From Planctomycetota bacterium (GTDB taxonomy: Bacteria > Planctomycetota > PLA2 > JAEUHO01): a stretch of DNA of 64,000 bases. The stretch is from assembly GCA_029259775.1 (NCBI GenBank), contig JAJDEN010000056.1:8917-72916 (forward strand), given 5' to 3'. Shown one piece after another: positions 8,155 through 44,691 of the stretch. The translations under genes were made by a program, and so were the position numbers. The number at the start of each line of letters is the position of its first letter. Position 1 is the stretch's first letter. The notes beneath the pieces are model-generated. The model saw only the letters and a list, made by a program, of their open reading frames with translations, was not told the origin of the DNA and did not search any database.

Positions 8155-10485
8155 ATGCGCTTCTTCGCTGCCGTCGCCATCGCGGCCATCGCCGCCATCC
8201 TCCTGCTGGTGGCGGTCCGCCCTCCGAACGACGACCCCGTGCCGGACCAGGTCCCGCCGAGGAGCACCAGGGACGCCTACCTGAGCGAGGAGGGGCGCCG
8301 CGTGCTCTTCGACATCGAGCGGGCCGATCTCCTGCTCGGACGCGCGCTCGAGCCGGTCAGCGCGGCCATCCGGGCGGGCCACGAGGCTCCCTTGCGCGCC
8401 GCCCTGGGCCCTGGGTTCGCGGGCCGCCTGCCGCCGCTGCCCGGCCCGGCGGACTGGACCGCCGAGGGCAGCTTCCGCTGGACGCACCTCAGCGAGCCGG
8501 CCGAGGTCGACACGGCCGGCCTGCTCGCCTGGCTCGGGCGCATGCGCGGCCGCTTCGCGAAGCTCGAGGTCGTCGCGTTCGGACGCAAGAAGAACAGCGC
8601 GACGGTCCTGAAAGGCCCCGACGTCGCCGCCCGCAGCGAGGGGTTGATCCGGCTGGCGGGCCAGGCAAAGGACGGCGGCAGGCTCGAGATCGCCGGCCGG
8701 TTCGTGCTCGGCCACGACGGGCTGGGTACCTACGACGGCACGCAACCCCTCGCGGGCTGGATTCGCGGACTCGAGCTGCACGCGATGACCGCGGTCCACA
8801 GCCACCGCGCGCTCTTCGAGGAGACGACCGCCGCGTCGGGCATCAACGTGCTCGAGCTGCACGACACCTGGAAGGCCGGCGACGGCGGCCGCGTCATGCA
8901 ACCCGGCGGTGTGTACCTGGGCGACGTCGACGGCGACGGCGTCACGGATCTCATCGTCACGGACGAGGGTCGGCGCACCCCCCTCTACCTGGGTCGCGGC
9001 AATGGCACCTTCCGCAAGAGCGCGTGGCGAGGCCCCAAGGCGGCGGAGCGCACCGAGGTCGCGATCTTCGACGCCACGGGCGATGGACGTGTTGACGTGT
9101 TGCTCGGTGGCGAGCTCCTGACGTGGAACGCCGCGACGGAGATGCTCGAACCGGTGCCCGGAGCGACACGCCTACCCAACGGGGGCGCGTGTGTCGCGGA
9201 CTACGATGCGGACGGGCGGCTCGACGTCTACCTCGTGGACGTGGGCAAGCGCTACACGGGACCTCGCTCCAAGGCCTTCTTCGACGACGAACGCATCACC
9301 GGCCGGCGGAACCTGCTGTTTCGAGGTCTTGGCGGCGGGCGCTTCGAGGACGTCACCGATCGGATGAACGCGTCGGGCGCGTTTGGACGTACGTTCGCCG
9401 CGGTGTGGCTCCACGCCAACGACGACGACCGACCGGACCTCTTCTGTGCGAACGAGTTCGGCCGCAACGCCTTTCTCGTAAGCCAGCCGGACGGGACGTT
9501 CGCCGACATGCCGGAGATCGACCACGAGTTCGGTGGGTTCTCGATGGGCGTGGCCGCGGGCGACATCGACGGCGACCTCAAGACGGACCTCTACGTCTCG
9601 AACATGTACTCCAAGGCCGGCCACCGGATCTACCACCACCTCGACCTGGCCGTGTACCCCGAGAACGTGCGCAAGATGTTCATGGCCTCGGTCGCGGGCA
9701 ACCGCTACTACCGCGCCCGCGGCGACCTGACCTTCGAAGAACGCGGTGGCGTCGCGGGGATCAACGCCGTGGGCTGGGGCTGGTCCGGCGCGCTGGCCGA
9801 CTTCGATCTCGACGGACGGCTGGATGTGTACGCGCCGTGCGGGCACACATCAGTCGACCGCGACAAGCCCGACGGGTGAGGCTGCGTGTGGCAGGCTGTG
9901 GCTGTGCAGCCGTTCGACATCTCCCGCAAGCACAAGGCGCCGCGCAGGCCCGACGGCACCCTGGATGAGTTCTGGCTCGAGAACCCGTTCGACTTCGAGA
10001 ACACGGGCGGCTTCAACCTCTCGCGTTTCGAGCGCAACCGCATGTTCTTCAACCTGGGCGACGGCGGCTTTCGCGAGGTCTCCTTCCTGAGCGGGACGGA
10101 CATCGACTCCGACACGCGCGGCGTGGCGATTGGCGACCTCGACGACGACGCGCGCCCCGACATGATCGTGCGCAACGTCGGCGGCGGGCCCGTGAGGGTG
10201 TTCCGCAACGCGATGGAGGGCCGAGGCGTGCGCGTGCGATTGCGAGGCACGGCCTCGAACAAGCAAGGCATCGGCGCCCGCCTCTGGCTCACGCAGGGGG
10301 ACCGCACCACCTACCGCGAGCACTTCCCCCAGAACACGCTCAACGCGCAGCACGCGACGGAGTCGATCTTCGCGATCCTCGCCGGCAAGGGAGCCGCCAG
10401 CATGCGGATCCGCTGGCCTTCGGGACACGAGCAGACGCTGCAGGACGTGCAGCCGGGCCTGCTCGAGGTGACCGAAGCGAAGTGA
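8155..10485 (+). CDS. Secreted FG-GAP repeat / ASPIC-UnbV (CRTAC1-like) protein with in-frame TGA at 9877-9879; predicted selenoprotein (776 aa, U575)
   Basis: ORFs 8155-9879 and 9886-10485 share a frame and read ...DKPDG-TGA-GCVWQAV. FG-GAP repeats (GDVDGDGVTDL, ADFDLDGRLDVY, GDLDDDARPD) occur on both sides of the TGA. The ASPIC/UnbV tail (SNKQGIGAR...IRWPSG) lies downstream. A hairpin follows the TGA. Confidence 0.78.
9894..9911 (+). promoter_or_regulatory. Putative bacterial SECIS hairpin of the ASPIC/UnbV gene
   Basis: GGCTGTG-GCTG-TGCAGCC: 7-bp stem with two G-U pairs; G-initial loop 21 nt after the TGA. Confidence 0.5.
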
Positions 10486-10494
10486 GCGCCTGGA

Positions 10495-11472
10495 TCAGAC
10501 CCGCCGGGCGTCCTCGATCAGGTTGATGTCGTACAGCACCTCGTCCAGCCAGTCGCCGGCCTGGATCGCGCCCTCCCGCTGAGGATGCCGCTCATCGATG
10601 CAGCAATCGAGCGGCGAGAGGATCGTCCACGGCGTGGGGTGGCAGAACTGCACGACCGAGTAGCGCTCGTCGGTCTCGCCGGCGGCGGCGATGACGCGAT
10701 GGATGCCCGTGGGAATCCGACCGTTCGTCAGGCGCTCGAGCATGAGACCGGTGTTGATGATCGCCATGCCCTCGGGCGGGACCGCATCGACCCACACGCC
10801 GTCGACCCTCACTTGCAGACCGCGTTGGGTCGCGCGCGGCAGCGCGGTGATGAGGTTGATGTCGCCGTGCTCCCCGGCCCAGATGTGGTCCTTGGCCGGG
10901 GCCTCCTGCATGGGCGGATAGCGGATGGCGCGCGTGAGTGTCGGCCCGTTCGCGAGCATGCCCTCGAAGAAGCCAGGATGCGCGCCGATGCCCGACGCGA
11001 TGATGCGCAGGAAGCGCTGCTGCAGATCGAACAGGCTCTCGTGGAGCCGGAGGAGTGCGTCTTCGATGCCGGGGACGGAGGCCTCGGGCAGGACGCGCGG
11101 CATGTAGCGATGCGGAAAGCGCCGTTGGAGCGGGTGCCCGACGGGCACGTCGGGACCCCAGTTCAGCATCTCCTTCCAGTCGGGCGTGGCGTTGACGGCC
11201 GCCGTCTCGACGAGCAGGCCTGTGTAGCCCGTCTGGCCCATCGAGCCTTCGACCACGAACTGGTCCTTCTCCTCGCGCGGCTTGTGGAAGAAGGTCGCGA
11301 GCAGATCGTAGGCCCGGTCGATCACCTCCGAGGGGATGTCGTGGGCGCAGTAGACGAAGCCGGTCCTCAGGCTGCGGGTGACGCCGTCGATGACCGCGCG
11401 CCGCTCGTCCGCGATCCCCTGCTCGAAGCGTAGGAGATCCACGGCCAGGATGTCACTCGAGCTGATCGTCAT
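10495..11472 (-). CDS. 2-oxoglutarate/Fe(II)-dependent oxygenase, isopenicillin N synthase family
   Basis: HxD (EHGDINL), distal His (IHRV), RxS (RYS), GLQV and DWKE motifs. Confidence 0.92.
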   Translation of the reverse strand: MTISSSDILAVDLLRFEQGIADERRAVIDGVTRSLRTGFVYCAHDIPSEVIDRAYDLLATFFHKPREEKDQFVVEGSMGQTGYTGLLVETAAVNATPDWKEMLNWGPDVPVGHPLQRRFPHRYMPRVLPEASVPGIEDALLRLHESLFDLQQRFLRIIASGIGAHPGFFEGMLANGPTLTRAIRYPPMQEAPAKDHIWAGEHGDINLITALPRATQRGLQVRVDGVWVDAVPPEGMAIINTGLMLERLTNGRIPTGIHRVIAAAGETDERYSVVQFCHPTPWTILSPLDCCIDERHPQREGAIQAGDWLDEVLYDINLIEDARRV

Positions 11473-11583
11473 GCGCGCAGGCTAGATTCCGCCCGCGCCC
11501 TACGCAACTCCCGCCCGCTCTTCTTCCTCGCTCGCCCCAATCGCGACGCGGCTTGTGGGGGCCCAGGCGGCGCGCAGCGCTGT

Positions 11584-11650
11584 GCGACGACGCGTGGGTT
11601 GCCACGCGAGGCCGCTGCCGACGCAGCGCCACCAAGCATCCGATCAGCCG
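11584..11650. repeat. Single partial copy of the palindromic repeat arrayed at 12235-12592
   Basis: gcgtgggttgccacgcgaggccgctgccgacgcagcgccaccaagcatccgatcagccg is nearly identical to part of the array unit. Confidence 0.9.
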
Positions 11651-11652
11651 AC

Positions 11653-12099
11653 CTAGCCGCCGGGGCCGTCGGCGAGGATGTACTGCTCTAGAGACGCCAT
11701 GTGGCCTTCGAGACGCTCAACGCGGTTGGTCAGGAGGTTGCGAATCGAGACCATGCCGATGGCCTTGCCGGCCTCGTCGACGATCGGCAGGTGCCGGAAG
11801 TGCTTCGTGAGCATGATCTCGAGGGCCTCAGCGCGTCGCGCGGCGGGCGTGATGCTCACGGGCTTGCGGACCATCACTTGTTCGACAGGCGTCGTGGCCG
11901 GGTCAAGGTCCTCGCCAACGACGCGCAGCATGAGGTCGCGTTCCGTGAAGATGCCGACGAGCTGATCACCATCGTTCACCGCGACGGCGCCCACACGGGC
12001 GGCTCGCATCACATCCACGGCGTGCCGCACGGTGGCGGTGGTTTCCACGGACGCGGGGGGGGAATCGGCGATCTTCATCAGCGCTTCAGGCATATGCAC
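11653..12099 (-). CDS. CBS-domain pair protein
   Basis: LVGIFTERDL, FRHLPIVD, GMVSIRNL; upstream GAGGAG RBS. Confidence 0.92.
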   Translation of the reverse strand: MHMPEALMKIADSPPASVETTATVRHAVDVMRAARVGAVAVNDGDQLVGIFTERDLMLRVVGEDLDPATTPVEQVMVRKPVSITPAARRAEALEIMLTKHFRHLPIVDEAGKAIGMVSIRNLLTNRVERLEGHMASLEQYILADGPGG

Positions 12100-12200
12100 T
12101 CCTCTTATGGCAGGCCCCTAGTGTGCCGAGATGCCTCGGGTTGGTCAACCGCGCTGGCCGAACGCAGCCTGACGCCTGCCTACGAGCCACCTGGCCTGCT

Positions 12201-12229
12201 GCCAGCCGCCAGCCGCCAGCCGCCAGCCG
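12201..12229. repeat. Heptamer tandem repeat (GCCAGCC)x4
   Basis: gccagccgccagccgccagccgccagcc read directly. Confidence 0.85.
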
Positions 12230-12234
12230 CAGAC

Positions 12235-12592
12235 GGGTGATCGGGGCAAGGCGCCAGCGAGCATCCGATCACCCGAACATCCGGTCGGGTGCTCGGGGCG
12301 ACGGTGCCGCGCAGCCATCGGCGACGACGCGTGGATTGCCACGCGAGGAGCCGATGGCAAAGCGCCACCGAGCATCCGATCAGCCGGTCGGGTGATCGGG
12401 GCGACGGTGCCGCAAGGAGGGGAGGCCGTGGCGTGGGTTGCCACGCGAGGCCGCTGCCGACGCAGCGCCACCGAGCATCCGATCAGCCGGTCGGGTGATC
12501 GGGGCGACGGTGCCGCAAGGAGGGGAGGCCGTGGCGTGGGTTGCCACGCGAGGCCGCTGCCGACGCAGCGCCACCGAGCATCCGATCAGCCG
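12235..12592. repeat. Intergenic 103-bp tandem palindromic (REP/BIME-like) array: two identical units plus a degenerate unit
   Basis: ccgagcatccgatcagccg recurs at 12368, 12471 and 12574 (period 103), with a variant near 12257. Internal hairpins CCGATCA..TGATCGG, GCGTGG-gttg-CCACGC and GCTGC-cgac-GCAGC. Confidence 0.92.
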
Positions 12593-12596
12593 AAGT

Positions 12597-14429
12597 CTAG
12601 GCGCCGTCGCGGAGGCTGCGAGCAGCCTCACGTTGCTCGAGGCGCACCTTGATGTGATCGAGATCGTCACGCGGCACCGCTTCGATGAGGCGTCGGGTGT
12701 AGGCCTGGCTCGGATTGGCGTAGATCGCGTCCGCCGGACCCGCCTCGACGATCTTCCCGTCCTTCATGACCGCCATCGTGTCGGACTGGAACTTCACCAC
12801 CGACAGATCGTGGCTGATGAAGATGTAGGTCAGGCCGTGCTTCTCCTGCAGGTCCTTCAGCAGGTTGAGGACCTGCGCCTGGACCGACACGTCGAGCGCA
12901 GAGACGGACTCGTCACACACGATGAACTGCGGGTCGAGGGCGAGCGCGCGCGCGATCGAGATGCGCTGGCGCTGACCGCCGGAGAACTCGTGCGGATAGC
13001 GGTTCATGTGTCCCGCTTCGAGGCCTACCTCGACGAGCAGCTGCGCCACCCGGTCGGTACGCTCGCGCTTCGTCTTGAAGAGGCGGTGCACCTCCATGGG
13101 CTCCGAGATCATGTCGCCGACCGTCATGCGCGGATTCAGCGACGAGTACGGATCCTGGAAGATGATCTGCATGCGGCGGCGGAGCGCGCGGAACTCCTTC
13201 GCAGGGATCTCGCTGAGGTCGCGCCCCTCGAACTTCACCTTGCCCTCGACCTTCACGCCGCCCTTGTTCTCGATGAGGCGCAACAAGGCACGGCCGCAGG
13301 TGGTCTTCCCGCAGCCCGACTCGCCGACGAGCCCCAGCGTCTGCCCGGGCCACACCTTGAACGAGACGCCGTCGACGGCCCGCACGTAGTCGTGGATGCG
13401 ACCGAAGACGCCCTTGCGGATCGGGAAGTGGACGACGAGGTTTTCGACCTCGAGCAGCGGCTCGCCGGGCGGATCGATCAGCTTGTCGCGGCCGACGGAC
13501 TCGAGCGCCTTGAGCGCACCCTCGTCGACGGGCTTCTCTTCGATCACGAGCTTGTGGTTCTCGTCGATGTGCCAGTCCATGAAGGTGGAGGTCGTGGGCA
13601 GGCGGCGGTACTTCGTGTCGAGGCTCGGCCGGCACGCGAGAAGGCTGCGCGTGTAGGGGTGCTTCGGGTTGGAGAAGATGTCGAGGACGTCGCCGTACTC
13701 GACCAGGTTGCCTTGGAACATGACGGCGACGTGGTCGGAGATCTCCGCGATCACGCCCAGGTCGTGCGTGATGAACATGATCGACATGCCGCGCTCGTCG
13801 CGGAGGCGCCGCATGAGGTCCAGGATCTGCGCCTGGATCGTCACGTCGAGCGCGGTCGTCGGCTCGTCGGCGATGAGGAGCTTCGGGTTGCAGGAGAGCG
13901 CCATGGCGATCATGACGCGCTGCTTCTGACCGCCCGACATCTCGTGCGGGTAGCTGTCGATGCGGCGCTCCGGGTCCGGGATGTCGACTTCGCGGAAGAG
14001 CTGCATGGCGCGCTCACGCGCCTCGTCACGGTTCAGGCCCTCGTGGACCATGATCGGCTCCATGACCTGGTCGCCGACGGTGAACACGGGGTTCAGCGAG
14101 GTCATCGGCTCCTGGAAGATCATGCCGATGTCCTTGCCGCGGATGCTGCGCATCTCGTGCTGCGGCACGTGGACGAGGTCACGCCCGAGGAAGGAGATCT
14201 GGCCGGCCTCGATGACCGCCGTCTCGGGCGGCAACAGCCGCATCAGGGAGAGCGCGGTGACGGACTTGCCGGAGCCGGACTCCCCCACCACGCCGAGGGT
14301 CTCGCCGCGCCCGATCCTGAGGTCGGTCCCGGGCGGCAGGTCCACCGCCCTGACGATCTTGTCCTCCGTATGGAAGTACGTCTTGAGGTCCTTGATGTGG
14401 ACGAGCGGTTCTTCGGTGATGTCGGTCAT
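12597..14429 (-). CDS. Peptide/nickel ABC transporter ATP-binding protein with two fused ATPase domains (DppD/DppF-like)
   Basis: Two Walker A motifs ([16 protein letters not shown]), [12 protein letters not shown] / [24 protein letters not shown]. Confidence 0.95.
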
Positions 14430-14489
14430 AGGCGGAGGATTCTGGGTGTGCGATGGCGCCCTGTCAACGCCGGCGATCCCGGACGGCGC

Positions 14490-14948
14490 TCAGACGCCCG
14501 TATGCCCGAAGCCGCCCGCGCCGCGCTCCGTCGCGTCCAGATCGGCCCCCGGAGCCCAGGCGGCTCGCGTGACGGGCGCAAAGACGATCTGCGCGATGCG
14601 CATCCCGCGCTCGATCCGCACGGTTTCCTGGCCGAGATTGGCGAGGATCACCTTCACCTCGCCCCGGTAGTCGCTGTCGATCGTGCCAGGGGTGTTGAGG
14701 CATGTGACGCCGCTCTTGAGCGCCCAGCCGCTGCGCGGGCGGATCTGGGCCTCGTAGCCGTCCGGAATCGCCATCCGGAGGCCCGTGGCGACGGCGTCGC
14801 GGTCGCCGGGCGCCAGTTCGATGCCCTCGTCGATCGCCGCCATCAGATCCATGCCCGCCGAGCCGCCCGTCTCGTAGGCCGGCAGCCCCAGACCGCGGCC
14901 GTGCTCGAGGATCTCGACGGGGACCGGGACGTGGGCGGGCAGCTTCAT
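14490..14948 (-). CDS. dut: dUTP diphosphatase
   Basis: [36 protein letters not shown]. Confidence 0.97.
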
Positions 14949-14990
14949 GCGCCGCAAGCTACCGCCGCGCTCCCCCACGCCCGGCGGCCG

Positions 14991-15545
14991 TCAGCTCTCC
15001 AGACGCCGACACATCCTCAGCTTCATCGCGCCTGTGTCGCCGTGGGGTATCTCCGCCACGCGCGGGTCCGGCTCGAATCCGGCCTTGCGGTAGAAGCGCT
15101 GGCCGCGCGCGTTGCCCGTGAGCACCCACATGGTCATCGACGCCGCGCCGCGAGCCACCGCGTCCCCGAGCGCGTGCTGCATGAGCGCGCGTCCGAAGCC
15201 GTGGCCGATGAGGTCGGGGTCGATGTAGATCGCGTAGAGCTCCCGCACCGCAGCGGGGTCGAGATCGTCATCCCGCGACGCGCCCGAGCAGGCCCAGCCG
15301 GCGACGCGGCCCTCGTGCTCGATGACCCAGTTCGCCGTGTCCGGCCACGGCGGCTCGAGGAGCGCCTGGCGCCGGGCTGCCGTGCGTTCCTCGAGGTCGA
15401 GCGCATCGAGATGCTCCTGCGGGATGATCCCGACGTAGGCCGTCCGCCAACCGCCGATGTGACAGCGCGTGATCTCCGCGGCGTCGTCGGGTATGGCCTC
15501 ACGGATGCGCGGATCGCTCATCGTCGGCTCCTCGTGTCGACTCAT
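14991..15545 (-). CDS. GNAT family N-acetyltransferase
   Basis: ELYAIYIDP..IGHGFGRALM, WVLTGNARGQRFYRKAGF. Confidence 0.9.
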   Translation of the reverse strand: MSRHEEPTMSDPRIREAIPDDAAEITRCHIGGWRTAYVGIIPQEHLDALDLEERTAARRQALLEPPWPDTANWVIEHEGRVAGWACSGASRDDDLDPAAVRELYAIYIDPDLIGHGFGRALMQHALGDAVARGAASMTMWVLTGNARGQRFYRKAGFEPDPRVAEIPHGDTGAMKLRMCRRLES

Positions 15546-16693
15546 CAGGGGTGCATGGTGCCAAGAACCGCGGGCTGCGTCGCGCCCGTCGCCGCGGGCA
15601 CGTTGCCGGGCAGGCCGTGCAGGGTGCGGTCGGCCAGCAGCGCGAACGCGACCGCCTCCTTGGCGTCAGCCCACGTGTCGTCCAACGCCTCCGCCTCGAC
15701 ACCGCAGACAGCGAGCCTCTCGGTGATGGCCGCCATCAGGGTCGGGTTGCGGCACCCGCCGCCGCTGAAGCGCACGCGCCCGAGGCCGGGGTAGCGCGTC
15801 AGCACGAAGCGTTCGTACGCCTCGGCCAGCGTGTTCGCCGTGAAGGCCACGGCGGTGCGAACGAGATCGTACGGATCCACGTCCGCATGGGCGGACAGGA
15901 CCTCCGCGATGAGATCGGGGCCGAAGGTGCCGTAGCCTGCGCTCTTGGGCGGCGGCTGGGCCAGCCACGCGGCGCGCTTCATGTAGAGCGTCAGCAGAAC
16001 GTCGTCGTCGATGCGCCCACGCGCGGAGAGCGTTCCGTCCTGGTCGAGTACGGGCGCGCCCGGGCAGCGGCCCGCGAAGGCGTCGATGAGCATGTTCGCG
16101 GGCCCCGTGTCGAAGGCCATCACGTCCGCCAGGTCGGGCGTGAGGACGGTCACGTTCGCGATGCTGCCGAGGTTGTGGCAGGCCGTGACCTCGTCGCCGC
16201 CGTAGAGGATCCAGTCGGCGAGCGGGACCAGTGGCGCCCCCTCGCCGCCCGCGGCGATGTCGGCTTGGCGGAAGTCGCTCACGGTCGGGATGCCCGTCGC
16301 CGCCGCGAGGCGCGCCCCGTCCCCCACCTGCAGCGAGAGCGCGGGCCGCCCAGCCTCGCGCGGCGCGTGGAAGAGCGTCTGGCCGTGCAAGCCGATCACG
16401 CTCACGGCCGCCGGGGCCACGTCGTGCTGGACCAGGAAGGCCAGGACGCGCTCGGCCCACAGGTCTGCCAGTTCCACGTCCAGCGCATCGGAGGCGGCCG
16501 AAGCAGGGCCGCGCGCGGCCTGCAGGCGCTGCCGGAAGGCGGGCTCGTAGGACGTGCCCTCGAAAGCCCGCAGCCCGACGGCAGGCCTCGCGCCGTTCCC
16601 GGAGATCTCGACCAGCGCGATGTCGAGGCCATCCATGCTCATGCCGCTCATGAGGCCCAAGGCCAGGCGGGCGGCGGGTGCGCGGGCGTCCAT
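15545..16693 (-). CDS. anmK: Anhydro-N-acetylmuramic acid kinase
   Basis: GLMSGMSMDGLD, HGQT, DFRQADIAAGGEGAPLVP, AFDTGPAN, SGGG..N, EAVAFALLA. Confidence 0.95.
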   Translation of the reverse strand: MDARAPAARLALGLMSGMSMDGLDIALVEISGNGARPAVGLRAFEGTSYEPAFRQRLQAARGPASAASDALDVELADLWAERVLAFLVQHDVAPAAVSVIGLHGQTLFHAPREAGRPALSLQVGDGARLAAATGIPTVSDFRQADIAAGGEGAPLVPLADWILYGGDEVTACHNLGSIANVTVLTPDLADVMAFDTGPANMLIDAFAGRCPGAPVLDQDGTLSARGRIDDDVLLTLYMKRAAWLAQPPPKSAGYGTFGPDLIAEVLSAHADVDPYDLVRTAVAFTANTLAEAYERFVLTRYPGLGRVRFSGGGCRNPTLMAAITERLAVCGVEAEALDDTWADAKEAVAFALLADRTLHGLPGNVPAATGATQPAVLGTMHP

Positions 16694-16792
16694 ACCGCGA
16701 GCCTAACGGGACGCCACCGAGCCTTTGCGCAAGACTTGCGAACGCGGCCCGGCCGACTGCGTCTGATGGGGCGACCCCCACGGAGATCCCCC

Positions 16793-17926: not shown

Positions 17927-17956
17927 GTGCGACCCATCCAGCTTGGGCCACGTCCG

Positions 17957-19726: not shown

Positions 19727-20197
19727 ATGGCCCAGATCCAAGAAGGCTCGGAGGCACCCGCCTTCGAGCTGCTCGATCAGGACGGCACCACCGTCTCGTC
19801 CGAGAGCCTCGCGGGCTCGCCCTACCTGCTCTGGTTCTATCCCAAGGCCAGCACGCCCGGGTGAACGACAGAAGGTTGCGGGTTCCGCGACCAGATCGAT
19901 GCCTTCACCGCCGCTGGCGTGACGATCCTCGGCGTCTCACCCGACGCGCCGGCGAAGAACGCCAAGTTCCAGGCCAAGCAGGCCTTCCCCTACCGCCTGC
20001 TGAGCGACACCGAGCAGCAGCTCGCGGGTGCCTACGGCATCTGGGGCGAGAAGAGCTTCATGGGCAAGACCTACATGGGGCTCGAGCGCAGCACGTGGCT
20101 CGTGGATGGCGCGGGCGTCGTGCAGGAAGTCTGGCGCAACGTGAAGGTCAAAGGGCACGTCGACGCCGTCCTTCTGGCCGCCCAGGACCTCGCATGA
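19727..20197 (+). CDS. bcp: Peroxiredoxin BCP/PrxQ with selenocysteine as peroxidatic residue (TGA 19862-19864; 156 aa, U46)
   Basis: AGGAGG RBS then MAQIQEGSEAPAFELLDQDG...WFYPKASTPG-TGA-TTEGCGFRD..ILGVSPD..FPYRLLSD..ERSTWLVD. The TGA occupies the C of FYPKxxTPGCTxE. The true stop overlaps the next ATG (ATGA). Confidence 0.93.
19874..19892 (+). promoter_or_regulatory. Putative bacterial SECIS hairpin of bcp
   Basis: GGTTGCGG-GTT-CCGCGACC, an 8-bp stem starting 9 nt after the TGA. Resembles the upper stem-loop of the E. coli fdhF SECIS (GGUUGCAGGUCUGCACC). Confidence 0.75.
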
Positions 20198-22310: not shown

Positions 22311-22313
22311 CCG

Positions 22314-36115: not shown

Positions 36116-36179
36116 GGGGCGCCATGGTGGTGCGGCCCGAGCGGTGAGGCAAGGCTGCGTCTGGCGTCGTCGGTCCTGG

Positions 36180-37184: not shown

Positions 37185-40100
37185 AGATCTTCTCCATGTG
37201 CTGCGCGTAGTGAAGCGACTCGTCCACGCGGAACGTCTCGATGCGGATCAGGTAGGAGCCCTCCGGGAAGCGGTCCTTCGGAACCGCCCAGCTGAACGTC
37301 TCGTTCCCGCCTGCGGTGAGATCGAGCACGGTGCGGGCCGGATCGGGTCCCACACCCTCGATCCACGGGAGATGGCCCGGCTGAATGGACGCGTCGTCAC
37401 GCATGCTCAGCCAGGTCTTGCCGTTGTCCGTGGAGTACATCGGCACGTAGACGAGGTCGCTCTCGGCCTGGGCGAATCCGGCCGCGTACGAACGCGTATA
37501 GGGCTTGCCGTCCCAGCGCCGCCACTCGATGCGCCACTGCACGTCGATCGTCGAGGGGTCCTCGAGCTCGGTGATCAGCGTTGGACTGAGGACTTCCACG
37601 CGCGGGAGCTGCGTGATGCGGTTGGGCGAGCCAGGCAGCCCGCCGCCGAAGTAGCTGTGGACGAGGGAGAGCATGCTGTAGCGCGCGATGAACGAGGAGC
37701 CGGACTCCGTCGTGCGGTCGATGCCGTTGATCACGATGTAGCCGCCGCGCGGATTCGCGCCCGGCTCCTGCAGGCGTACCAGCCCGCTGCCGATGAGCGA
37801 GCCGTTGTCGTGGTCGTAGTAGCGCCGCACGAGCTGCGCGCTGTAGCGCGGGTACGCATCGGTGAAGTTGAACTCATCGCCCAGGCCGCCCGACCAGTTC
37901 GACGCCAGCTGGAACGGGCGACTCACCATCGTGGTGGTCGGGAGCGGGAAGTTGTACTCCTCGGACAGCTCCGGACCATCCTCCACCAGCGAGCCCTCGT
38001 GGCCCGACTGGTACTGGTGGTGGTACGTCGCCGCGCTCGTTCCGATGTTGAAGAACGACGTCGAGCCTTCGGCGTTGGTGCGCGACTCGCTCCTGCGCAT
38101 CGTCGTACCCAGTGGCTGCTGCGTACCAGTGATGCCGTCCTTGCGTACGAGGTGGAACTCGCCCGCGGCCGTGCCCGTGTTCGCCCGCAGATTGCCCCAC
38201 GGTTTCCACTGCGTGCCGTAGGTCGCGTCGGGACAGAGCTCGCCCATCCAGGGCTTCGACCACCAGTAGCCGCCCGATCGGATCCCGGCGCTGGTGCCGG
38301 TGTTGGTCCGCGCCAGCTTGCGGCTGCCGCGCAAGGTGCTGGTGCCGCCGCCGCCGGTGATCGTGTTCTCGTACACGTCGCCCGCGAGTCCGAAGGGCTT
38401 GCCGTCCATCGGGATGCTGTTGCTGTAGCCGTTCGCGCTGTCGTAGCCGACATCGCCGCCGAGCGACAGGTAGTAGAACGAGAAGCCGGTCTGGGCGTTC
38501 CAAAGCGCCTCGCTCTTGGTGATGGCCTGACGCAGCCACTGGAAGATGCGCCCGACGTCGTGGTCGGCGCGGCCGCGCCAGTGATCGCGCAAGCGGCCGG
38601 CGTCGAAGGCGAGCCACTGGTTCTGGAAGTTGCCCGAGCCGTCCGAGAAGTTGTCCCAGTACCAGTTGTAGCCGTGGGCCGCCGTGGTGCCGGTGGCGTC
38701 GAGGTCGGCGTAAGGGCAGTGACGCGGGTCGCCGTTCATCTGATGACGCTCGCTGAACGGCACCTTCTCGGGGTCGCCGTAGAACCAGGTGAACGTGCGC
38801 GACAGGTTGCGCGGCTCGTTGCGCGCAGGCCACAGGGTGCCCGCGGCGAGGTCGTGACCGAGACGCGTCTCCACGGCAATCACGCGGTCGACGCCGTCGC
38901 CGTCGTTGGCGCCCGGCGCGGAGGCGAGCGCACTTCGCAGGGCCGGTGTCGGCAGGGTGATCCGCCAACGCGCGGTGTTCTTGGGCGCGCTGCCGTTCCA
39001 GGCAAGGTCGCGGGTGAAGCGGTTCGTGTCGCCGGCGGTGCCGGGCGTCGGGCAGGGCACGTGGTCGAGGTCATAGAGACGGTAGGCGGACGGCAAGCCG
39101 CGACCGCTCAGCTCGGGCGCCTCGAGCGGCGTGCCGTGCAACTCCAGCACCGTGCGGTTGGTCGCGGCTTCGAAGCGGATCCCGTACCACATCTCGCCGC
39201 GCTCGAAGCCGCCGTCCCGCACGCCGTCCTGATCTGCGTCGAAGAAGGTCTCGGCTGGATCCCAGGTGCTGTCGCCGTCCATGTCCAGGAAGGGCTCGCC
39301 GAAGTTGGCCACGTAGGCGTCTTCCGCGGCCGTGCTGCCGAAGTCGAGCGGATTCCAGGGCTGCCACGCGGGCGGCGTCGCGGTGGTCGGGCCGTCGCGC
39401 ACGCCGTTGCCGTTCCGGTCCCAGTAGGGTTCCGCCGGGTCCCAGCTGCCGTTCGCGTTGCCGTCGTTGAACGGCTCCGCGGGCCGCGCCGGATCGAAGG
39501 TCGCGTCGCCGTCCAGATCGGTCAAGGCCTCCGTCGTCGTGCCGTACGCGCCGTCGCCGTCACGCTCCTGATACGGGTCGTGCGCGTCCTTCGCGCCGTT
39601 GCCGTCCAGGTCGAAGTAGGTCTCGGCGAGCTGACGGATGCCGTCGCCATTTCCATCGCCGAAGATCTCGGGGTAGCGCGGCGCCGCATGCAACGCCTGG
39701 TAGGCGTCACCGGCCCCGCTGCCGTCGGTGTCGATGCCGCCGGGCAGCCGCTCGATGACGATCGACGGGTTCGATGCCGCGTTCGGCGCACCGCTGTGAT
39801 CGGCACCTGGCAGGACGAGCGTGGCCGGGAGCCCCGCGTCGCGCACACCGTTGCCGTTCCAGTCCTGGTAGGCCTCGCCGGCGTCGTAGCTTCCGCTGCC
39901 ATTGACGTCGAGGAACGGTTCCTCTTGCGTCATCAAGACCTCGGCACCGGACGTACCCGCGAATGCGGTCTTGTAGGCGTGCACGCGGAAGCGTGGTGCG
40001 ATCGATGCGGCGTCGTTGCCGGCCACACGGGTCGGCGCGATGCGCTCGGGGTGCGTCACGACCCGCCAGCCCGGCTTGGCCTCGGGCAGGGCCGCGGCGT

Positions 40101-41292
40101 CGCTGTAGTTGCGCGCGGGCGGCATCGGCAGCAACTCACCGTGCAGGTTGACGATGAGCGCATTGTGGTAGCGGTCCGGATCGAGCACCATCCGGTCCAG
40201 CAGCAGGCGCCACGTCGGCGTATCGTCCGTCGCCAGGCCCGCCGCAACGCGCGCCTCGTGACGCGCGACGGCCTCCGGATACCGCATGCAGTGGTTGTTC
40301 ATGTCCGCTAGCGCGTAGGGCATCTCGTTGCCGGCGTCCCAACTCCCGTCGCCGTCGCCGTCGTCGAAGGGCTCGCCCGGGTCACGCACGCCATTGCTAT
40401 TCGTGTCGGTGAAGGTCTCTTGCGCGGCCCACCCGCCGGCGAACGCGGGCGTCGTCACGCCGTCGAGGTTCATGCGGGCGCGCATGCGCTCGGGTACGTA
40501 GTAGCGCTCCGAGGCCATCCCGTCCGGCATGCGACCCGGGTAGCAGTAGGCCCACGGCGTGTCTTCGCGGCTGTCGCGTGCCTCGTTGGTGTAGGGCGCG
40601 TACTCCTCGTCGCGCCCGTAGCCCAGGGTCGTGACCCAGTGGGTCCGGAAGCGCAGGCCGGGGTTGCGTCCCTCGAGATCGGTCAGCGTCGCCTCGATGA
40701 ACGGCTGGATCGCGTCCATGAAGACCCACCAGCCCGGCACGTTCTCGCACGCGACCAGGTAGACGTCGTAGACCTGCGTGGTCGGGAACGCATCCCCAAT
40801 CGTTCGGATGACCGAGCTCATCTGGGCCATCTGCTCTCCGGGCAGCGTGTCGGCCGGCCGCATGCGGAAGACCTTGACGGTCGTGATGCGCAGATCGCGC
40901 TGTGCCGCGCCGGGGAACGGCCGCACGGAAATCTGGCGGTACCAACGCCACTCGCCCTTGTCGCGTGTGTTGCCCGAGATCACGTTGCCGGGCGGCAGGT
41001 AGGCGCCAGGGTCGGAGGGATCGGGCTGGATCGTGAGCGACGGCTCGTAGCCCAGCCCGTCATCGAACCCATCGAGGTCGGCTGCGACCTCGCTTTCGCC
41101 GCCTTCGACGAATGCGCGCAGCTCCGCGAGGATCGAGAGCGCACGCTGGCGCGCGAACACCTTGTCACGTACCCAATCCGTGTGCTGGGTACCGCGCGTG
41201 ATGTAGGCGACACCCGCCATCGCGGCGACGGCGAGGAGCACCACGGCGATCAGGACCTCGAGCAGGCCGAAGCCGCGCATGCGGTGCATCAT
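37171..41292 (-). CDS. Giant prepilin-type (PilV/GspI-like N-terminus) protein, 1373 aa, with Ca-binding-like DxNGNG repeats
   Basis: RG|FGLLEVLIAVVLLAVAAMAG, followed by many E(P/T)FxDxNGNGxxD repeats. Confidence 0.82.
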   Translation of the reverse strand: MMHRMRGFGLLEVLIAVVLLAVAAMAGVAYITRGTQHTDWVRDKVFARQRALSILAELRAFVEGGESEVAADLDGFDDGLGYEPSLTIQPDPSDPGAYLPPGNVISGNTRDKGEWRWYRQISVRPFPGAAQRDLRITTVKVFRMRPADTLPGEQMAQMSSVIRTIGDAFPTTQVYDVYLVACENVPGWWVFMDAIQPFIEATLTDLEGRNPGLRFRTHWVTTLGYGRDEEYAPYTNEARDSREDTPWAYCYPGRMPDGMASERYYVPERMRARMNLDGVTTPAFAGGWAAQETFTDTNSNGVRDPGEPFDDGDGDGSWDAGNEMPYALADMNNHCMRYPEAVARHEARVAAGLATDDTPTWRLLLDRMVLDPDRYHNALIVNLHGELLPMPPARNYSDAAALPEAKPGWRVVTHPERIAPTRVAGNDAASIAPRFRVHAYKTAFAGTSGAEVLMTQEEPFLDVNGSGSYDAGEAYQDWNGNGVRDAGLPATLVLPGADHSGAPNAASNPSIVIERLPGGIDTDGSGAGDAYQALHAAPRYPEIFGDGNGDGIRQLAETYFDLDGNGAKDAHDPYQERDGDGAYGTTTEALTDLDGDATFDPARPAEPFNDGNANGSWDPAEPYWDRNGNGVRDGPTTATPPAWQPWNPLDFGSTAAEDAYVANFGEPFLDMDGDSTWDPAETFFDADQDGVRDGGFERGEMWYGIRFEAATNRTVLELHGTPLEAPELSGRGLPSAYRLYDLDHVPCPTPGTAGDTNRFTRDLAWNGSAPKNTARWRITLPTPALRSALASAPGANDGDGVDRVIAVETRLGHDLAAGTLWPARNEPRNLSRTFTWFYGDPEKVPFSERHQMNGDPRHCPYADLDATGTTAAHGYNWYWDNFSDGSGNFQNQWLAFDAGRLRDHWRGRADHDVGRIFQWLRQAITKSEALWNAQTGFSFYYLSLGGDVGYDSANGYSNSIPMDGKPFGLAGDVYENTITGGGGTSTLRGSRKLARTNTGTSAGIRSGGYWWSKPWMGELCPDATYGTQWKPWGNLRANTGTAAGEFHLVRKDGITGTQQPLGTTMRRSESRTNAEGSTSFFNIGTSAATYHHQYQSGHEGSLVEDGPELSEEYNFPLPTTTMVSRPFQLASNWSGGLGDEFNFTDAYPRYSAQLVRRYYDHDNGSLIGSGLVRLQEPGANPRGGYIVINGIDRTTESGSSFIARYSMLSLVHSYFGGGLPGSPNRITQLPRVEVLSPTLITELEDPSTIDVQWRIEWRRWDGKPYTRSYAAGFAQAESDLVYVPMYSTDNGKTWLSMRDDASIQPGHLPWIEGVGPDPARTVLDLTAGGNETFSWAVPKDRFPEGSYLIRIETFRVDESLHYAQHMEKIYVNR

Positions 41293-42581
41293 TCCCCACC
41301 TCCCGTCACGATCGCATCGACACGATTGGCGAGGGGAAAGACCGCCTTGCTGCGCCGGTACGTGCCCATGCGGGTGAGCAGGTCATCGACGATGCCGCCG
41401 TCGTACTCGATCTCGGCGAAGTCGCCGCCGGCGCCGCGCACGTCGATGTAGCTCTGTCCGATGAAGATGCCGCGCAGGTAGCAGGGGCCGTTGATCTCGA
41501 GACGGCCGCTGCACCACAGCATGCCGTTGAAGAAGGAGTTCGAGCCGCTGGCGATCGTGCAGGTGCCCTTGACGATGACGATGCCCGTGCCGCGGAGCGG
41601 GCGATCCTTGTCGAAGACGACGTTGCCCTCGATCACCGTGAGCGTGTACTCCCCGAGATTGCCGGGCAGCACGCTGGCATCGGTGACGGCGGCGTCGGCC
41701 ATGCCCTTGAGGTCAGACAGGGTCACGCCGAAGACGCCCTTGAGCCCGCTGCGCCAGCCCGGCACGGATGTGGTCGCGGGCGCGCCGTCGACCTCGCTCT
41801 CCGCTTGGAGCGTCGGTGTGCCGTTGCTCGGATGGTGGGCGATGCCGACCGCGCTGCCGCCACGAATGCGGGCTCGAGCGCCGATGGTCACCCGGGAGCC
41901 ACGTTTCGCGCAGATGGCCGCGGCAGCCGGCGTGGTGAGAGCGAGCCGGCGAAGCTCGGTGGCGACGGCGTTGGACGCGATACGCCAGTTGGCGCCCTCG
42001 CCCAGGGGCAGATCCGCGCGCGGCCGGCGGTAGAGGAAGCCATGGCTCTCGACCAGCCACACGGCGCCGCCGGCGGTCTGACCGCGGTGGCTCGACACAT
42101 CCTGGACGCCGGCGGCCGGGTCCCAGGCTCCGTTGTCGTTGCTGTCAGTGAACGGTTCCGAGCCGTCGTGGAAGCCGTTGCCGTTCACATCGGTGAAGGG
42201 TTCGGCCGGCGTGGCGATGCGCACCTCGTAGCGTGCCCACACGCCGGGCGTGACCTCGTACTCACGCACGAGACCGACATCGGGGTCCATGGTCTCGTTG
42301 ATGGGCGGGTTCGCCGCGAGGTCCAGCCGGGGCGCGAACGTCGTCACGGGCTGCACGTTCTGGCGGCGGAACCACGAGAGCGCTTCGGCGACGCCGGCGA
42401 GTGCGATCTCGCGCGCTCGGACCGGTGCGGTCGCACCGCTCTCAGAGCCCTTGTCGAGCGCGAGGCTCGATTGGGTGCCCGACGCGATCATCGCGCCCAG
42501 CAGGAGCACACTGACGACGGCCACGAGCATCGCGAATCCGCGCTCTTGAGCGCGCGGTCGTACGGTGGAACGGGGGAGCAT
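41289..42581 (-). CDS. Prepilin-type (PilX/GspK-like) protein lacking E5
   Basis: ERG|FAMLVAVVSVLLL, AREIALAGVAEA (PilX-N-like), two EPFTDxNxNG repeats, beta-helix-like C-terminus (GTGIVIVKG, FNGMLW). Confidence 0.8.
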   Translation of the reverse strand: MLPRSTVRPRAQERGFAMLVAVVSVLLLGAMIASGTQSSLALDKGSESGATAPVRAREIALAGVAEALSWFRRQNVQPVTTFAPRLDLAANPPINETMDPDVGLVREYEVTPGVWARYEVRIATPAEPFTDVNGNGFHDGSEPFTDSNDNGAWDPAAGVQDVSSHRGQTAGGAVWLVESHGFLYRRPRADLPLGEGANWRIASNAVATELRRLALTTPAAAAICAKRGSRVTIGARARIRGGSAVGIAHHPSNGTPTLQAESEVDGAPATTSVPGWRSGLKGVFGVTLSDLKGMADAAVTDASVLPGNLGEYTLTVIEGNVVFDKDRPLRGTGIVIVKGTCTIASGSNSFFNGMLWCSGRLEINGPCYLRGIFIGQSYIDVRGAGGDFAEIEYDGGIVDDLLTRMGTYRRSKAVFPLANRVDAIVTGGGE

Positions 42582-42723
42582 GTGAGGTTCCGGGGCCTAC
42601 CCGTCACCACGTCCGACATCATCTCAGCGGCTGCGTACTGGGGAACACGGAGCCGCGCGTCTTATCGTCGTCAGGCCGCGATCGAGTGAGGTCAATCCCG
42701 CAGCGTGAACTTCTTGCAGGTAC

Positions 42724-43077
42724 TCAGTTGCCAGCCGTGCGCTTGGCCTCGGCGCGCGCCTTGCGGCGCGCTTCCTTGTCAGCGCGGATCTTGAGGAGGA
42801 GGCGGTCGATCAGCGCATCGGCTTCACGCTGACGTGCGACGTGATGCGCCGACGTCATGGGGATCGCGCGGTCCGGCTGGGCCGCGGCGGGCTGCGTTGC
42901 CGGCCGCACCATCCCCGGCTGGAAGAGGGTGTCGTCGGGGATGGGTCCATCGAGGGGCAGGCTGCCGTCCGAAGCGTCCGCGGCGGCGCCGGCTGCATCG
43001 CCGGAGGTGACGTTGAGGGCGGCGAGCACGACGCCGGTGAGGAAGAGGACGCAAACGATGATCCACACGCGCGCCAT
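42724..43077 (-). CDS. Small membrane-anchored hypothetical protein
   Basis: MARVWIIVCVLFLTGVVLAAL hydrophobic N-terminus; lies upstream of and co-oriented with the prepilin cluster. Confidence 0.5.
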   Translation of the reverse strand: MARVWIIVCVLFLTGVVLAALNVTSGDAAGAAADASDGSLPLDGPIPDDTLFQPGMVRPATQPAAAQPDRAIPMTSAHHVARQREADALIDRLLLKIRADKEARRKARAEAKRTAGN

Positions 43078-43410
43078 CCCGCGACGGCCGGCGTGAGGCG
43101 AGTGCGGTGTTGCGCGGGCACAGCGATCGGGGCGCCGGACTTTCCCAAGCCCGGCAGGGGCGGTCGGAGACACGGGGTCGTCCTTTCCCCACCACGTGTG
43201 CCCTTTCGTCGGGCCCGGGCGCGGGCTGAAGCAGATAGCCCCCCGATGTTCACGGGTGAGACAGGAAGGACTTTGGACCCTGTCTCAGTCCGCCCCGTGC
43301 CCAAAGGCTCGGGAGGGCCGCCGCGGGATCCCAAACGGAGGGAAACCCGCTGCTAGCCTTCGCACGTCATAGGAGGCAGACCCTCACTCGCCTCCCCTAG
43401 GAGAACTCAC

Positions 43411-44691
43411 GTGCACCGACCGATGTTGCGGGCCCTCAAGCTGGGCGCGATCGTCGCCGGCTTGATGCTGGCCACCCCTGCCGCCCCCGTCCTCGCCGAA
43501 GACGGCCCTGGACCCGCCGAAGACGGCCCTGGACCCGCCGCGACCGGCATCGCCTGGGTCAAGGGCTGGGAAGCCGGCCGCGCCCAGGCGAAGAAGGACG
43601 GCAAGCTGATGTTCGTCTACTTCGGCCGCTACTCACCGAAGTGACCCCCCTGCGAGATGCTGGAGAACCGTGTGTTCTCCCAGGACGGCTCGGCCGCCCT
43701 CAGCGACAAGTTCACCGCCGTGAAGCTGCTCGGCGGCAACGACCTCGACGACGAAGGCAAGGCCTTCATGAAGCGCTACGGCGTTGGCGGTTACCCGACA
43801 CTGCTCGCGATGACGCCCGATGGCGCCGTCGTCAGCCGGAGCTTCGGTGACCGCACGCTCGAGGGCATCGTCGGCTCGATGGTCGCTGCCGTTACGGCGG
43901 ACGGCGAGTTCAGGGCCAAGGAGGCCGACTTGGCCAGCAAGACGGACGCGGCCAGCGTTCGTGAGATGGCCGGCCTCTACAAGGCTCGCTCGCAGCTGGA
44001 CAAGGCGCGCACGCGCTACGAGAAGCTCACGGCCGAGAAGCCGTCCGTCGAGGACCAGGAGAACCTCCTCGAGGTCGTCTCCAGCCTCGGCGACAGCGCC
44101 GCCCGGAAGGGCCTGCTGGCAACGCTCGTCGGCACGCGCAGCGACCACGCCAAGCACATCGAGTGGCGCACCGAGCTCGCCATGGTCGACGTGCCCACGC
44201 AGGTCACGAGCCGCGCGGAGTGGAACGACGTGATGGGCAAGCGCAAGGCGGCCCTCACCGCCCTGCTTCCGGAGGTCGAGAAGGTCGCCGACCAGGCGCA
44301 CGTCCGCGGGATCCTCGCAGACATCGCGGCCAACACAGGCGATCGTGACGCGGCCGGCGCGCACTGGGACTGGATCCTCGAGAAGGCCCCGGACAGCAAG
44401 GCCGCCGCCGGCGCCTTGTGGATGAAGAGCAACGACCTCATCCGCCAGGGCCGCTTCGAGAGCGACGCCACGAAGCTGAAGGACGCCAAGGCCCTCTGGG
44501 GGCAGTTGGTCAAGGACCACGCGACCAGCCCCGGTGGCCAGCGCGCCAAGCAGTTCATGGGCCAGCTCGACGGCATGATCGCGGCCCTCGAGCTCAAGCA
44601 GGCCGAAGCCGCAGAGAAGAAGCTCAAGCAGGCCGAAGCCGAAGAGAAGAAGAAGGGCGAGCCCCTGAAGCCGCGCGACGACGGCAACTAG
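43411..44691 (+). CDS. Exported thioredoxin-like (UxxC) + TPR-like selenoprotein; in-frame TGA 43642-43644 (426 aa, U78)
   Basis: ORFs 43411-43644 and 43657-44691 share a frame and read IAWVKGWEAGRAQAKKDGKLMFVYFGRYSPK-TGA-PPCEMLENRVF. Thioredoxin fold continues (KFTAVKL, YGVGGYPTLL cis-Pro, PDG). AGGAG RBS before the GTG start. Confidence 0.9.
43495..43536 (+). repeat. 21-nt perfect tandem duplication (AEDGPGP x2) after the signal peptide
   Basis: gccgaagacggccctggaccc twice. Confidence 0.9.
43660..43683 (+). promoter_or_regulatory. Putative bacterial SECIS hairpin of the thioredoxin-like gene
   Basis: CTGGAGAAC-CGTGT-GTTCTCC(C)AG; loop begins 24 nt after the TGA with G at the second loop position. 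Confidence 0.7.
44591..44652 (+). repeat. 30-nt near-perfect tandem duplication (LKQAEAxEKK x2) at the C-terminus
   Basis: agctcaagcaggccgaagccg(c/a)agagaaga at 44591 and 44621. Confidence 0.85.

Follow-up and report, generated by a model that had tools for sequence, protein, structure and literature searches.

Do three in-frame TGA codons in a planctomycete contig specify selenocysteine (Sec), and how large is the set of selenoproteins in such an organism? The question is raised by a stretch of 64,000 nucleotides (nt) of contig JAJDEN010000056.1 (assembly GCA_029259775.1), called the window below, whose host is an uncultured Planctomycetota lineage. Within about 36 kb, three genes of the window carry an in-frame TGA: a gene for a CRTAC1-like beta-propeller protein, a peroxiredoxin gene (bcp) and a gene for a thioredoxin-like protein. 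A preliminary description, made from the sequence alone, had placed these TGAs at 9877, 19862 and 43642, each in a Cys- or redox-type context, and this is correct (codons 575, 46 and 78, respectively). We conclude that the three TGAs are very probably Sec codons read by the canonical bacterial pathway. The genes and their elements, including putative selenocysteine insertion sequence (SECIS) hairpins with stem lengths in base pairs (bp), are as follows.

8155..10485, plus strand: predicted propeller selenoprotein gene, 776 residues, CRTAC1-like; the true stop is the terminal TGA at 10483-10485
8155..8217, plus strand: N-terminal hydrophobic segment of the propeller protein, signal peptide or membrane anchor by a home-made heuristic
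9877..9879, plus strand: putative Sec codon of the propeller gene, U575 (PDG-U-GC-VW), codon 575, context KPDG-U-GCVW
9894..9911, plus strand: putative SECIS hairpin of the propeller gene, 7-bp stem GGCUGUG/UGCAGCC, loop GCUG
19727..20197, plus strand: bcp, predicted BCP/PrxQ thiol peroxidase of 156 residues with Sec at the peroxidatic position, cytoplasmic, no signal peptide
19862..19864, plus strand: putative Sec codon of bcp, U46 (P-x-x-x-T-P-G-U), codon 46, context STPG-U-TTEGC
19874..19892, plus strand: putative SECIS hairpin of bcp, 8-bp stem GGUUGCGG/CCGCGACC, loop GUU (apex GGUUC)
43411..44691, plus strand: predicted exported thioredoxin-like gene (U-P-P-C; Pfam), 426 residues, with a long helical C-terminal extension
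43411..43497, plus strand: predicted signal peptide of the thioredoxin-like protein, about 29 residues, ending ...PVLA|EDG (heuristic; cleavage site by eye)
43642..43644, plus strand: putative Sec codon of the thioredoxin-like gene, U78 (UxxC), codon 78, context YSPK-U-PPC
43662..43680, plus strand: putative SECIS hairpin of the thioredoxin-like gene, 7-bp stem GGAGAAC/GUUCUCC, loop CGUGU

Domains and TGA columns of the window genes

The decoding mechanism is that of ordinary bacterial Sec insertion, and known selenoprotein families account for two of the three window genes. The bcp product matches AhpC-TSA at 119.9 bits over residues 7-134, the match crossing the UGA, and passes the NCBIfam model NF006960 (thiol peroxidase, Bcp) with 167.8 bits against a cut-off of 140. 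Among its relatives, the Sec column holds TGA in seven sequences (from the same genus and one other) and Cys in twelve, U46 aligning with the Cys of their TPG-C motif, as befits a BCP/PrxQ protein; within the 41 genomes examined (40 related ones and the host's own), the Sec form was seen in only two genera, both from one family. Sec-containing peroxiredoxin (Prx, PF00578, motif PxxxTxxU) is tabulated as experimentally verified in Table 1 of a 2026 review (PMC13188914). The window protein shares with it P-K-A-S-T-P-G-U and the AhpC-TSA domain across the UGA, but represents the BCP/PrxQ branch and lies outside the PrxU model (NF040737, 28 bits; cut-off 270). The bcp product would be a peroxidase of the BCP/PrxQ type, located in the cytoplasm and using Sec as its peroxidatic residue.

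In the thioredoxin-like protein, the UGA is crossed by Thioredoxin_2 (PF13098; 29.7 bits, residues 60-137) and Thioredoxin_7 (PF13899; 28.5 bits, residues 48-136), both of which narrowly clear their cut-off of 27. The thioredoxin fold and the U-P-P-C motif together identify a thioredoxin-like oxidoreductase. The orthologues, found in the same family only (10 of 24 genomes), and a paralogue show U at the Sec column in nine sequences, C in two (CPAC and CPGC) and E in the paralogue; the nine Sec forms have U-P-P-C throughout except one U-G-G-C. With the UxxC selenoproteins of the thioredoxin-like or thiol:disulfide type (PF13098, PF13899; Trx7/PDZ, NF041199; VPGUxxT, NF041383) the window protein shares the signal peptide, the UGA-crossing domain and U-P-P-C; it differs from them in that its best NCBIfam selenoprotein model gives 20 bits, below the cut-off, and in a helical C-terminal extension of roughly 290 residues. 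The product would be an exported thioredoxin-fold U-x-x-C oxidoreductase. Its predicted mature N-terminus opens with a perfect tandem duplication, AEDGPGP-AEDGPGP (43495-43542); in the DNA, 24 nt are repeated.

The propeller protein consists of the N-terminal hydrophobic segment, an unassigned N-domain, an FG-GAP/VCBS beta-propeller and an UnbV_ASPIC C-domain. FG-GAP_3 (126 bits), FG-GAP (34 bits) and UnbV_ASPIC (31 bits) all pass the Pfam cut-off; the FG-GAP repeats precede the UGA and the UnbV_ASPIC domain follows it, in one frame throughout. This order of domains and a CRTAC1-like fold (see below) assign the protein to the CRTAC1 / ASPIC-UnbV family. Its 13 best matches in other genomes come from both families of the order and have exactly one TGA each. 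A MAFFT alignment of 12 sequences has the TGA column shared by 11 of 11 TGA-bearing orthologues (10 other genomes; 28-58% identity), nine of them with PDG-U-[GST]-C-[VI]-W and two with DT-U-S-x-F-W-C; the single TGA-less sequence, from another family, has Glu at the Sec column.

These alignments bear on the possibility that the TGAs are true stops, the downstream parts being separate genes and the products split proteins. Such arrangements do occur in this genome: most candidates of the genome-wide scan described below are adjacent same-frame genes (about 30 of 84 clear, about 20 unresolved or only possible). For the window genes this is exceedingly improbable, as either one Pfam or NCBIfam domain extends over the TGA or the CRTAC1-like architecture continues beyond it, the two halves are separated by neither a start codon nor a ribosome-binding gap, and the Cys-form orthologues are single uninterrupted genes.

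In one relative (genome G006, contig C127) all three window orthologues lie on one contig, at 109-145 kb, and the neighbourhood is therefore conserved.

Selenocysteine machinery and normal use of TGA

The genome comprises 5.09 Mb in 66 contigs and has a GC content of 68.4%. All four components needed for Sec decoding that the preliminary description had proposed to look for are present, each exceeding its curated cut-off: tRNA-Sec on contig C54 (70.7 bits; tRNA-SeC with anticodon tca by ARAGORN), SelA on C57 (430.9 bits), full-length SelB on C40 (336.7 bits, cut-off 242; positions 2-581 of a 581-position model) and, adjoining selA, SelD (349.7 bits), which has one in-frame TGA. As that description also stated, none of the sel genes lies in the window. 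SelA was found in 37 of the 41 genomes (22 of 24 in the same family and 11 of 11 in the sister family) and in 113 of 151 genomes of an even sample of the phylum. For the NuoD protein of the window, the nearest named relatives (74-87% identity) are without exception labelled as MAG proteins of Planctomycetota or Planctomycetia. Sec machinery was reported previously in four planctomycetes, along with six putative selenoproteins in one of them (PMC4807772). The genes selD and selA stand side by side on one strand (L018, G000:C57:29554-31772, minus, G000 being the host genome), the Sec of SelD falling in G-G-U-A-A-K.

With these components, SelD, here itself a predicted selenoprotein, would make selenophosphate, SelA would turn Ser-tRNA-Sec (anticodon UCA) into Sec-tRNA-Sec, and SelB would deliver the latter to a UGA followed about 20-27 nt on by a short hairpin with G or GU at its apex.

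The UGA might also be read by other means, that is, as Cys, Trp or Gly through a suppressor or a tRNA-Sec-like tRNA, or after a general change of the code. The inserted residue cannot be told from sequence alone, and tRNA-Sec-like tRNAs carrying Cys have been described in some bacteria. Yet TGA closes 714 gene-like open reading frames (ORFs) that are 300 codons or longer; the TGA that closes nuoD (minus strand, window 213-1499) overlaps an ATG, and bcp itself terminates in ATGA. The Trp codon in use is TGG, which appears often in coding frames (13,443 times in the ORFs used for training below). Moreover, SelA, SelB and SelD are intact, SelD has a UGA at its catalytic position, and SelB-type hairpins are found at the recoded sites. 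TGA is not reassigned genome-wide, in agreement with the preliminary description, which had taken nuoD and bcp as examples of TGA stops and TGG as Trp, and decoding as another residue is highly unlikely. Sec remains the preferred reading.

Hairpins downstream of the TGA codons

The hairpins of the propeller, bcp and thioredoxin-like genes have perfect stems of 7, 8 and 7 bp, and their loops (GCUG, GUU or GGUUC, and CGUGU) carry G at position 1, 1 and 2, respectively. Measured from the U, the loops begin at 24, 20 and 27 nt (21, 17 and 24 nt past the codon), in agreement with the 17-24 nt and the G in the first two loop positions that had been described from the sequence.

We then asked how specific such hairpins are, counting those in which the stem has 6 bp or more, the loop comprises 3-7 nt and begins 16-30 nt from the U, and G falls within the first two bases of the loop. 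Hairpins of this kind follow 22 of 33 confident Sec-UGAs (a set chosen by ourselves, two codons of which were picked with a hairpin filter). In the control sets they follow 401 of 3764 in-frame positions drawn at random from genes, 72 of 714 TGAs that are genuine stops and 2 of 30 false positives, where the TGA separates neighbouring genes in one frame. Over 35 Sec sites the apex is GGU in 14 and CGUG in five, compared with 46 and 27 of 1882 in the background (2.4% and 1.4%); jointly, the two types account for 19 of 35 Sec sites versus 3.9% of the background. The comparison of post-UGA hairpins, which the preliminary description had suggested to align, shows two shared apex types. Loop starts at the Sec sites examined lie between 16 and 29 nt (median 24), and at two of the 35 sites no hairpin was found by the same criteria. 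In the SECIS of the E. coli fdhF type, the hairpin directly follows the UGA and has G-U at its apex. The GGU apexes, several of them GGUC, resemble this element; the second class, CGUG(U/C/A), which includes the thioredoxin-like gene, differs from it.

The hairpins were also compared among orthologues. The bcp hairpin stretch is identical in six of the seven Sec forms, the exception being that of G006, and is not retained in the 12 Cys forms. For the thioredoxin-like gene, a hairpin with a GUGU-containing loop is retained in 9 of 9 Sec forms (CGUGU in eight, AGUGU in one) and the stem varies, its 5' side being GAGAAC in 5 of 9. For the propeller, 86.4% of cells are paired over 11 orthologues versus 27-56% when the partner is slid, both-sided changes occur in four of six pairs, and the covariation score was reached by 0 of 500 shuffles. 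Since the sequences are kin and the helix is coding, we regard this covariation as supportive, short of conclusive.

Structure and relatives of the CRTAC1-like propeller

An AlphaFold2 model of the propeller protein, built from the 12-sequence alignment, has a mean predicted local distance difference test score (pLDDT) of 80.3 and a predicted template modelling (TM) score of 0.82. Residues 2-20 are predicted as a helix followed by a low-confidence linker. U575 opens a helix (575-584) between propeller strands, in a region modelled less well (ten-residue blocks over residues 561-590 average pLDDT 65-76). The start of a helix is a typical place for a redox-active Cys or Sec. The best Foldseek match in the PDB is murine CRTAC1 (9etn_A, E 1.4e-22, TM score 0.65 on the target).

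Among the eight closest matches in a collection of 5.8 billion proteins (65-100% identical), seven have 574-633 residues and end with ...PDG before the TGA, one of them being the gene call for the window gene itself (P0005, 574 residues, ending at the TGA). The identity of full-length homologues does not exceed 37%, and their names are CRTAC1, VCBS or 'enediyne biosynthesis protein E4'; no matching model exists in NCBIfam. The window protein and the CRTAC1 / ASPIC-UnbV proteins have in common FG-GAP_3 repeats and the UnbV_ASPIC C-domain. The window protein differs from them in an additional N-terminal domain of about 230 residues and in its Sec, which sits in a helix-bearing insert absent from 45 of 103 database homologues.

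A subfamily of CRTAC1-like proteins of about 1200-1300 residues (P0013, P0014, P0026, P0036, P0037, P0045, P0053) is fused to tetratricopeptide repeats (TPR) and an AhpC-TSA peroxiredoxin domain, and has D-L-[S/D/E]-S-F-F-W where the window protein has D-G-U-G-C-V-W. The fusion hints at a redox link for the Sec loop.

The third product would be an exported or anchored CRTAC1-like beta-propeller with Sec opening a short helix (U-x-C), and from the U-x-C helix we infer a redox or peroxide-related role. CRTAC1-like scaffolds are associated with adhesion and calcium binding, and we know of no redox chemistry in this beta-propeller fold. If Sec arose in a lineage-specific insert, an adhesion and calcium-binding scaffold would have been turned into a selenoenzyme.

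Genome-wide search for selenoprotein genes

The genome was scanned with a codon-usage log-odds model, trained on long ORFs with high GC content at third codon positions, for TGAs with coding signal on both sides that beat the other five frames. This yielded 82 candidates, including the three window genes; a looser pass, in which a hairpin and a nearby Cys were required, added two, and all 84 were run against Pfam. In 25 genes the Pfam match itself crosses the UGA:

Thioredoxin_7/_2: 12 genes
AhpC-TSA/Redoxin: 6 genes
T4_deiodinase with EF-hands: 2 genes
DUF3179: 2 genes
GSHPx: 1 gene
Rdx/SelW-like: 1 gene
CMD/AhpD-like: 1 gene
HMA: 1 gene

Seven more genes were accepted on other support: SelD, the propeller, an AhpC-TSA_2 protein (HFG-U-PFC) and two pairs of paralogues. 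The first pair (L057 and L075; G000:C34:52880-54172 and C52:117603-118883) encodes predicted exported proteins of roughly 430 residues with L-x-C-T-U-N-N-G (CTUNNG family), and one TGA is present in 23 of 24 matches among relatives. The second (L028 and L067; C7:49253-49861 and C40:105815-106327) encodes small, lysine-rich, predicted exported proteins with G-G-C-U-G-H-P-G-T-W (GGCUGHPGTW family), TGA being present in 19 of 19 matches among relatives. Neither pair matched a Pfam or NCBIfam family.

An independent whole-genome search with hidden Markov models found TGA in 12 of 21 Thioredoxin_7 and 7 of 17 AhpC-TSA matches and added only two genes to the codon scan, both U-x-x-U. The NCBIfam selenoprotein models matched are Trx7/PDZ (305 bits, cut-off 300), SelW/T/H and peroxidase-related; VPGUxxT stays under its cut-off. 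The total is at least 34 selenoprotein genes with 37 Sec codons. The inference of a selenoprotein-rich organism, drawn earlier from the window, is thus upheld by the genome-wide UGA scan together with Pfam and NCBIfam.

About ten more genes probably exist beyond these 34, giving perhaps about 45. Uncounted possible or probable candidates comprise eight with a single TGA (n5, n29, n30, n39, n59, n60, n63, n64) and three with two TGAs (C34:38197, C34:37388, C63:9302). They include a protein resembling arsenite methyltransferase, a redoxin that has G-U at its C-terminus, a lipoprotein of the HMA-like type with U-x-x-U, a U-U protein whose codons are followed by a GGAGC-GGUC-GCUCC hairpin, and a WD40 protein. 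About 12 further candidates of the 84 were not classed and were left out of the count. About 30 of the 84 were clearly neighbouring genes in one frame and were rejected, among them purC/purE, ABC transporter pairs and a MoaD-like protein with GG-stop at its end.

The same scan was run for each stop codon, and a Cys within three residues was found for 28 of 82 TGA candidates, 6 of 142 TAG and 3 of 22 TAA. This comparison bears on the possibility that the window TGAs stem from mistakes in sequencing or assembly, or from mutation in genes undergoing decay (pseudogenes), for which the preliminary description had predicted stops of all three types at random positions. The assembly is of a fragmented metagenome type with 4.45% contamination, and gene callers do shorten these genes, as with P0005 (574 residues), which ends at the TGA. 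Errors or decay are nevertheless most improbable: the TGA column is shared by independent genomes (11 propeller, seven Bcp and nine thioredoxin-like sequences), TGA stands in place of the catalytic Cys, the coding signal persists on either side of it, and the redox pattern is absent for TAG and TAA. TAG candidates outnumber those of TGA (142 and 82), the two stops being about equally common, and nearly all of them look like adjacent same-frame genes.

The 37 Sec codons correspond to about 0.47 per 64 kb of the 5.09 Mb genome, so a window with three is locally rich. Three hits in about 36 kb had been taken as a sign of a large selenoproteome; the selenoproteome is large, but the density of the window is a local excess, not a representative value, and the number of genes falls short of a record (see below). 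Besides the window gene, ten more Thioredoxin_7 genes with TGA are present in the genome. Nine genomes of the order have 1-10 such genes each, with most in this genome; the expansion is therefore shared but uneven. Sec-formate dehydrogenase was not found in the genome: no match to TIGR01553 reached the cut-off, and none had a TGA.

Export signals

An N-terminus was scored as signal-peptide-like when K or R was followed by an uncharged stretch of 11 residues with mean hydropathy of at least 2.0, the start codon being freely chosen. By this crude home-made heuristic, 26 of 32 selenoprotein genes have such N-termini, compared with 1425 of 3988 gene-like ORFs (35.7%) under identical treatment. The six negative genes encode Bcp, a 2-Cys-type Prx, SelD and the SelW-like, AhpD-like and AhpC-TSA_2 proteins. 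The two U-x-x-U genes start with hydrophobic leaders, as judged by eye, and several selenoprotein N-termini have lipobox-like ends. The preliminary description, which called the selenoproteome partly exported, understated the case. As about four fifths of the genes have export signals, the main use of selenium seems to lie in the thiol-disulfide and peroxide chemistry of the cell envelope.

Weight of the evidence

Each window gene combines an in-frame UGA, coding signal and family similarity on both sides of it, a hairpin with an apical G and Cys or a conserved TGA at the homologous column, in a genome with tRNA-Sec, SelA, SelB and SelD. Several points weigh against the Sec reading. Sec insertion itself is deduced from the DNA throughout, on the direct observation of reading frames, family matches, machinery genes, Sec and Cys columns in relatives, hairpin enrichment and covariation; the export of the products and the redox role of the propeller are likewise inferred. 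The assembly is in 66 contigs, 92.5% complete and 4.45% contaminated, and the window contig differs from the contigs bearing the sel genes (C40, C54 and C57). Folding energies of the three post-UGA stretches are at chance (z = +0.14, -1.04 and -0.98 against dinucleotide shuffles, in a genome of 68% GC), the hairpin enrichment depends on our choice of the confident set, and the signal-peptide test is crude.

For the propeller, the Sec column in the 103 database homologues is a gap in 45, Cys in four and other residues in the remainder (S, D, E or N in distant homologues; a Cys example is D-Y-C-T-N-F-W), the pairwise alignments being unreliable in the Sec loop. Close Cys forms were not found: a scan of 185,579 species genomes with a pattern carrying Cys in place of U gave no relative. 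A search of genome contigs with the single propeller protein gave no relatives, and the 12-sequence pattern of the scan carried Cys and was able to find Cys forms alone.

Comparison with catalogued selenoproteins

Table 1 of the 2026 review (PMC13188914) lists 119 prokaryotic selenoprotein families, among them Prx (TxxU), thiol:disulfide interchange (UxxC), DUF3179, deiodinase-like, CMD-like, GPX-like, SelW-like, MsrA, Trx7/PDZ, VPGUxxT and arsenite methyltransferase. An FG-GAP, VCBS, CRTAC1 or ASPIC entry is absent from this table, and the CTUNNG and GGCUGHPGTW families are likewise absent from it and had no NCBIfam match. In the full-text literature, nothing relevant was found among the matches listed for selenocysteine together with FG-GAP, VCBS, CRTAC1 or ASPIC, the BSepDB web lists and supplements lying outside the scope of this search. 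Three conserved TGA-bearing families with no Pfam or NCBIfam selenoprotein model are therefore candidates for new families.

BSepDB (PMC13326102) holds 57,630 selenoproteins from 16,621 species and has FdhA as the commonest bacterial selenoprotein; its top ten genomes have 46-63 genes (Table 2 there: Olavius delta-1 symbiont 63, Desulfobacterota 49-57, UBA8248 48-54, Dehalococcoidia 46-49). The deep-Sep paper (PMC12013277) counts 39 in Syntrophobacter fumaroxidans and 46 in Desulfosediminicola flagellatus. Like the top ten of BSepDB, the host has dozens of selenoprotein genes, mostly of the thioredoxin fold, yet with at least 34 genes, perhaps about 45, it ranks below them. Unlike them, it is a planctomycete of 68% GC with respiratory complex I genes, and no Sec-formate dehydrogenase was found in it. 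In the host, about 80% of the selenoprotein genes have export signals by the crude test.

The novelty is modest but real. It lies in a planctomycete order whose large selenoproteome, mostly exported by prediction, is without FdhA, and in three or more conserved TGA-bearing families for which no selenoprotein model exists; the CRTAC1-like propeller is the largest of these. The understanding of Sec decoding is unchanged. A high-GC planctomycete with complex I, at least 34 selenoprotein genes, no Sec-formate dehydrogenase detected and export signals on roughly four fifths of those genes would offer a natural case for studying why Sec beats Cys in an oxidising compartment.

As a tentative proposal, possible yet somewhat doubtful when taken as a whole, selenium may now be the usual nucleophile of the envelope redox proteins of the order; at least three exported families (propeller PDG-U-x-C-V-W, CTUNNG and GGCUGHPGTW) may be uncatalogued; and the Sec of the propeller may have arisen in a lineage-specific helix insert instead of replacing a widespread catalytic Cys.

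Standard gene callers cut UGA-bearing proteins short, the window propeller being recorded as a stump of 574 residues. As they stop at the UGAs, the annotation of this order misses dozens of redox enzymes per genome.

Further candidate selenoproteins

Several genes outside the window have two putative Sec codons or unusual domain combinations. L022/L023 (G000:C4:21909-23018, minus strand) encodes a signal peptide and a Thioredoxin_7 domain (VPG-U-STC) fused to MsrA (GMT-U-FWVG), with two Sec codons; its first part scores 210 bits with the NCBIfam model VPGUxxT type 2, below the cut-off of 275. At G000:C34:36546-37874 (minus strand), TGAs at 37388 and 37385 would give a possible exported protein with adjacent Sec codons, GGAT-U-U-ASVDF, followed by the GGAGC-GGUC-GCUCC hairpin. 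This gene adjoins that of the HMA-like U-x-x-U lipoprotein (C34:37652-38416), which ends in a Cys-form Thioredoxin_7 domain. The WD40-repeat protein at G000:C63:8069-10048 (plus strand) has TGAs at 9302 and 9311, possibly read as S-G-U-G-P-U and followed by a CCUUCG-GUG-CGAAGG hairpin; WD40 would be an unusual fold for a selenoprotein. Finally, L025 and L096 (G000:C7:45913-47016 and C63:48431-49639) encode predicted exported selenoproteins of the deiodinase family with FGS-x-T-U-x-P-F and N-terminal EF-hand calcium-binding domains.

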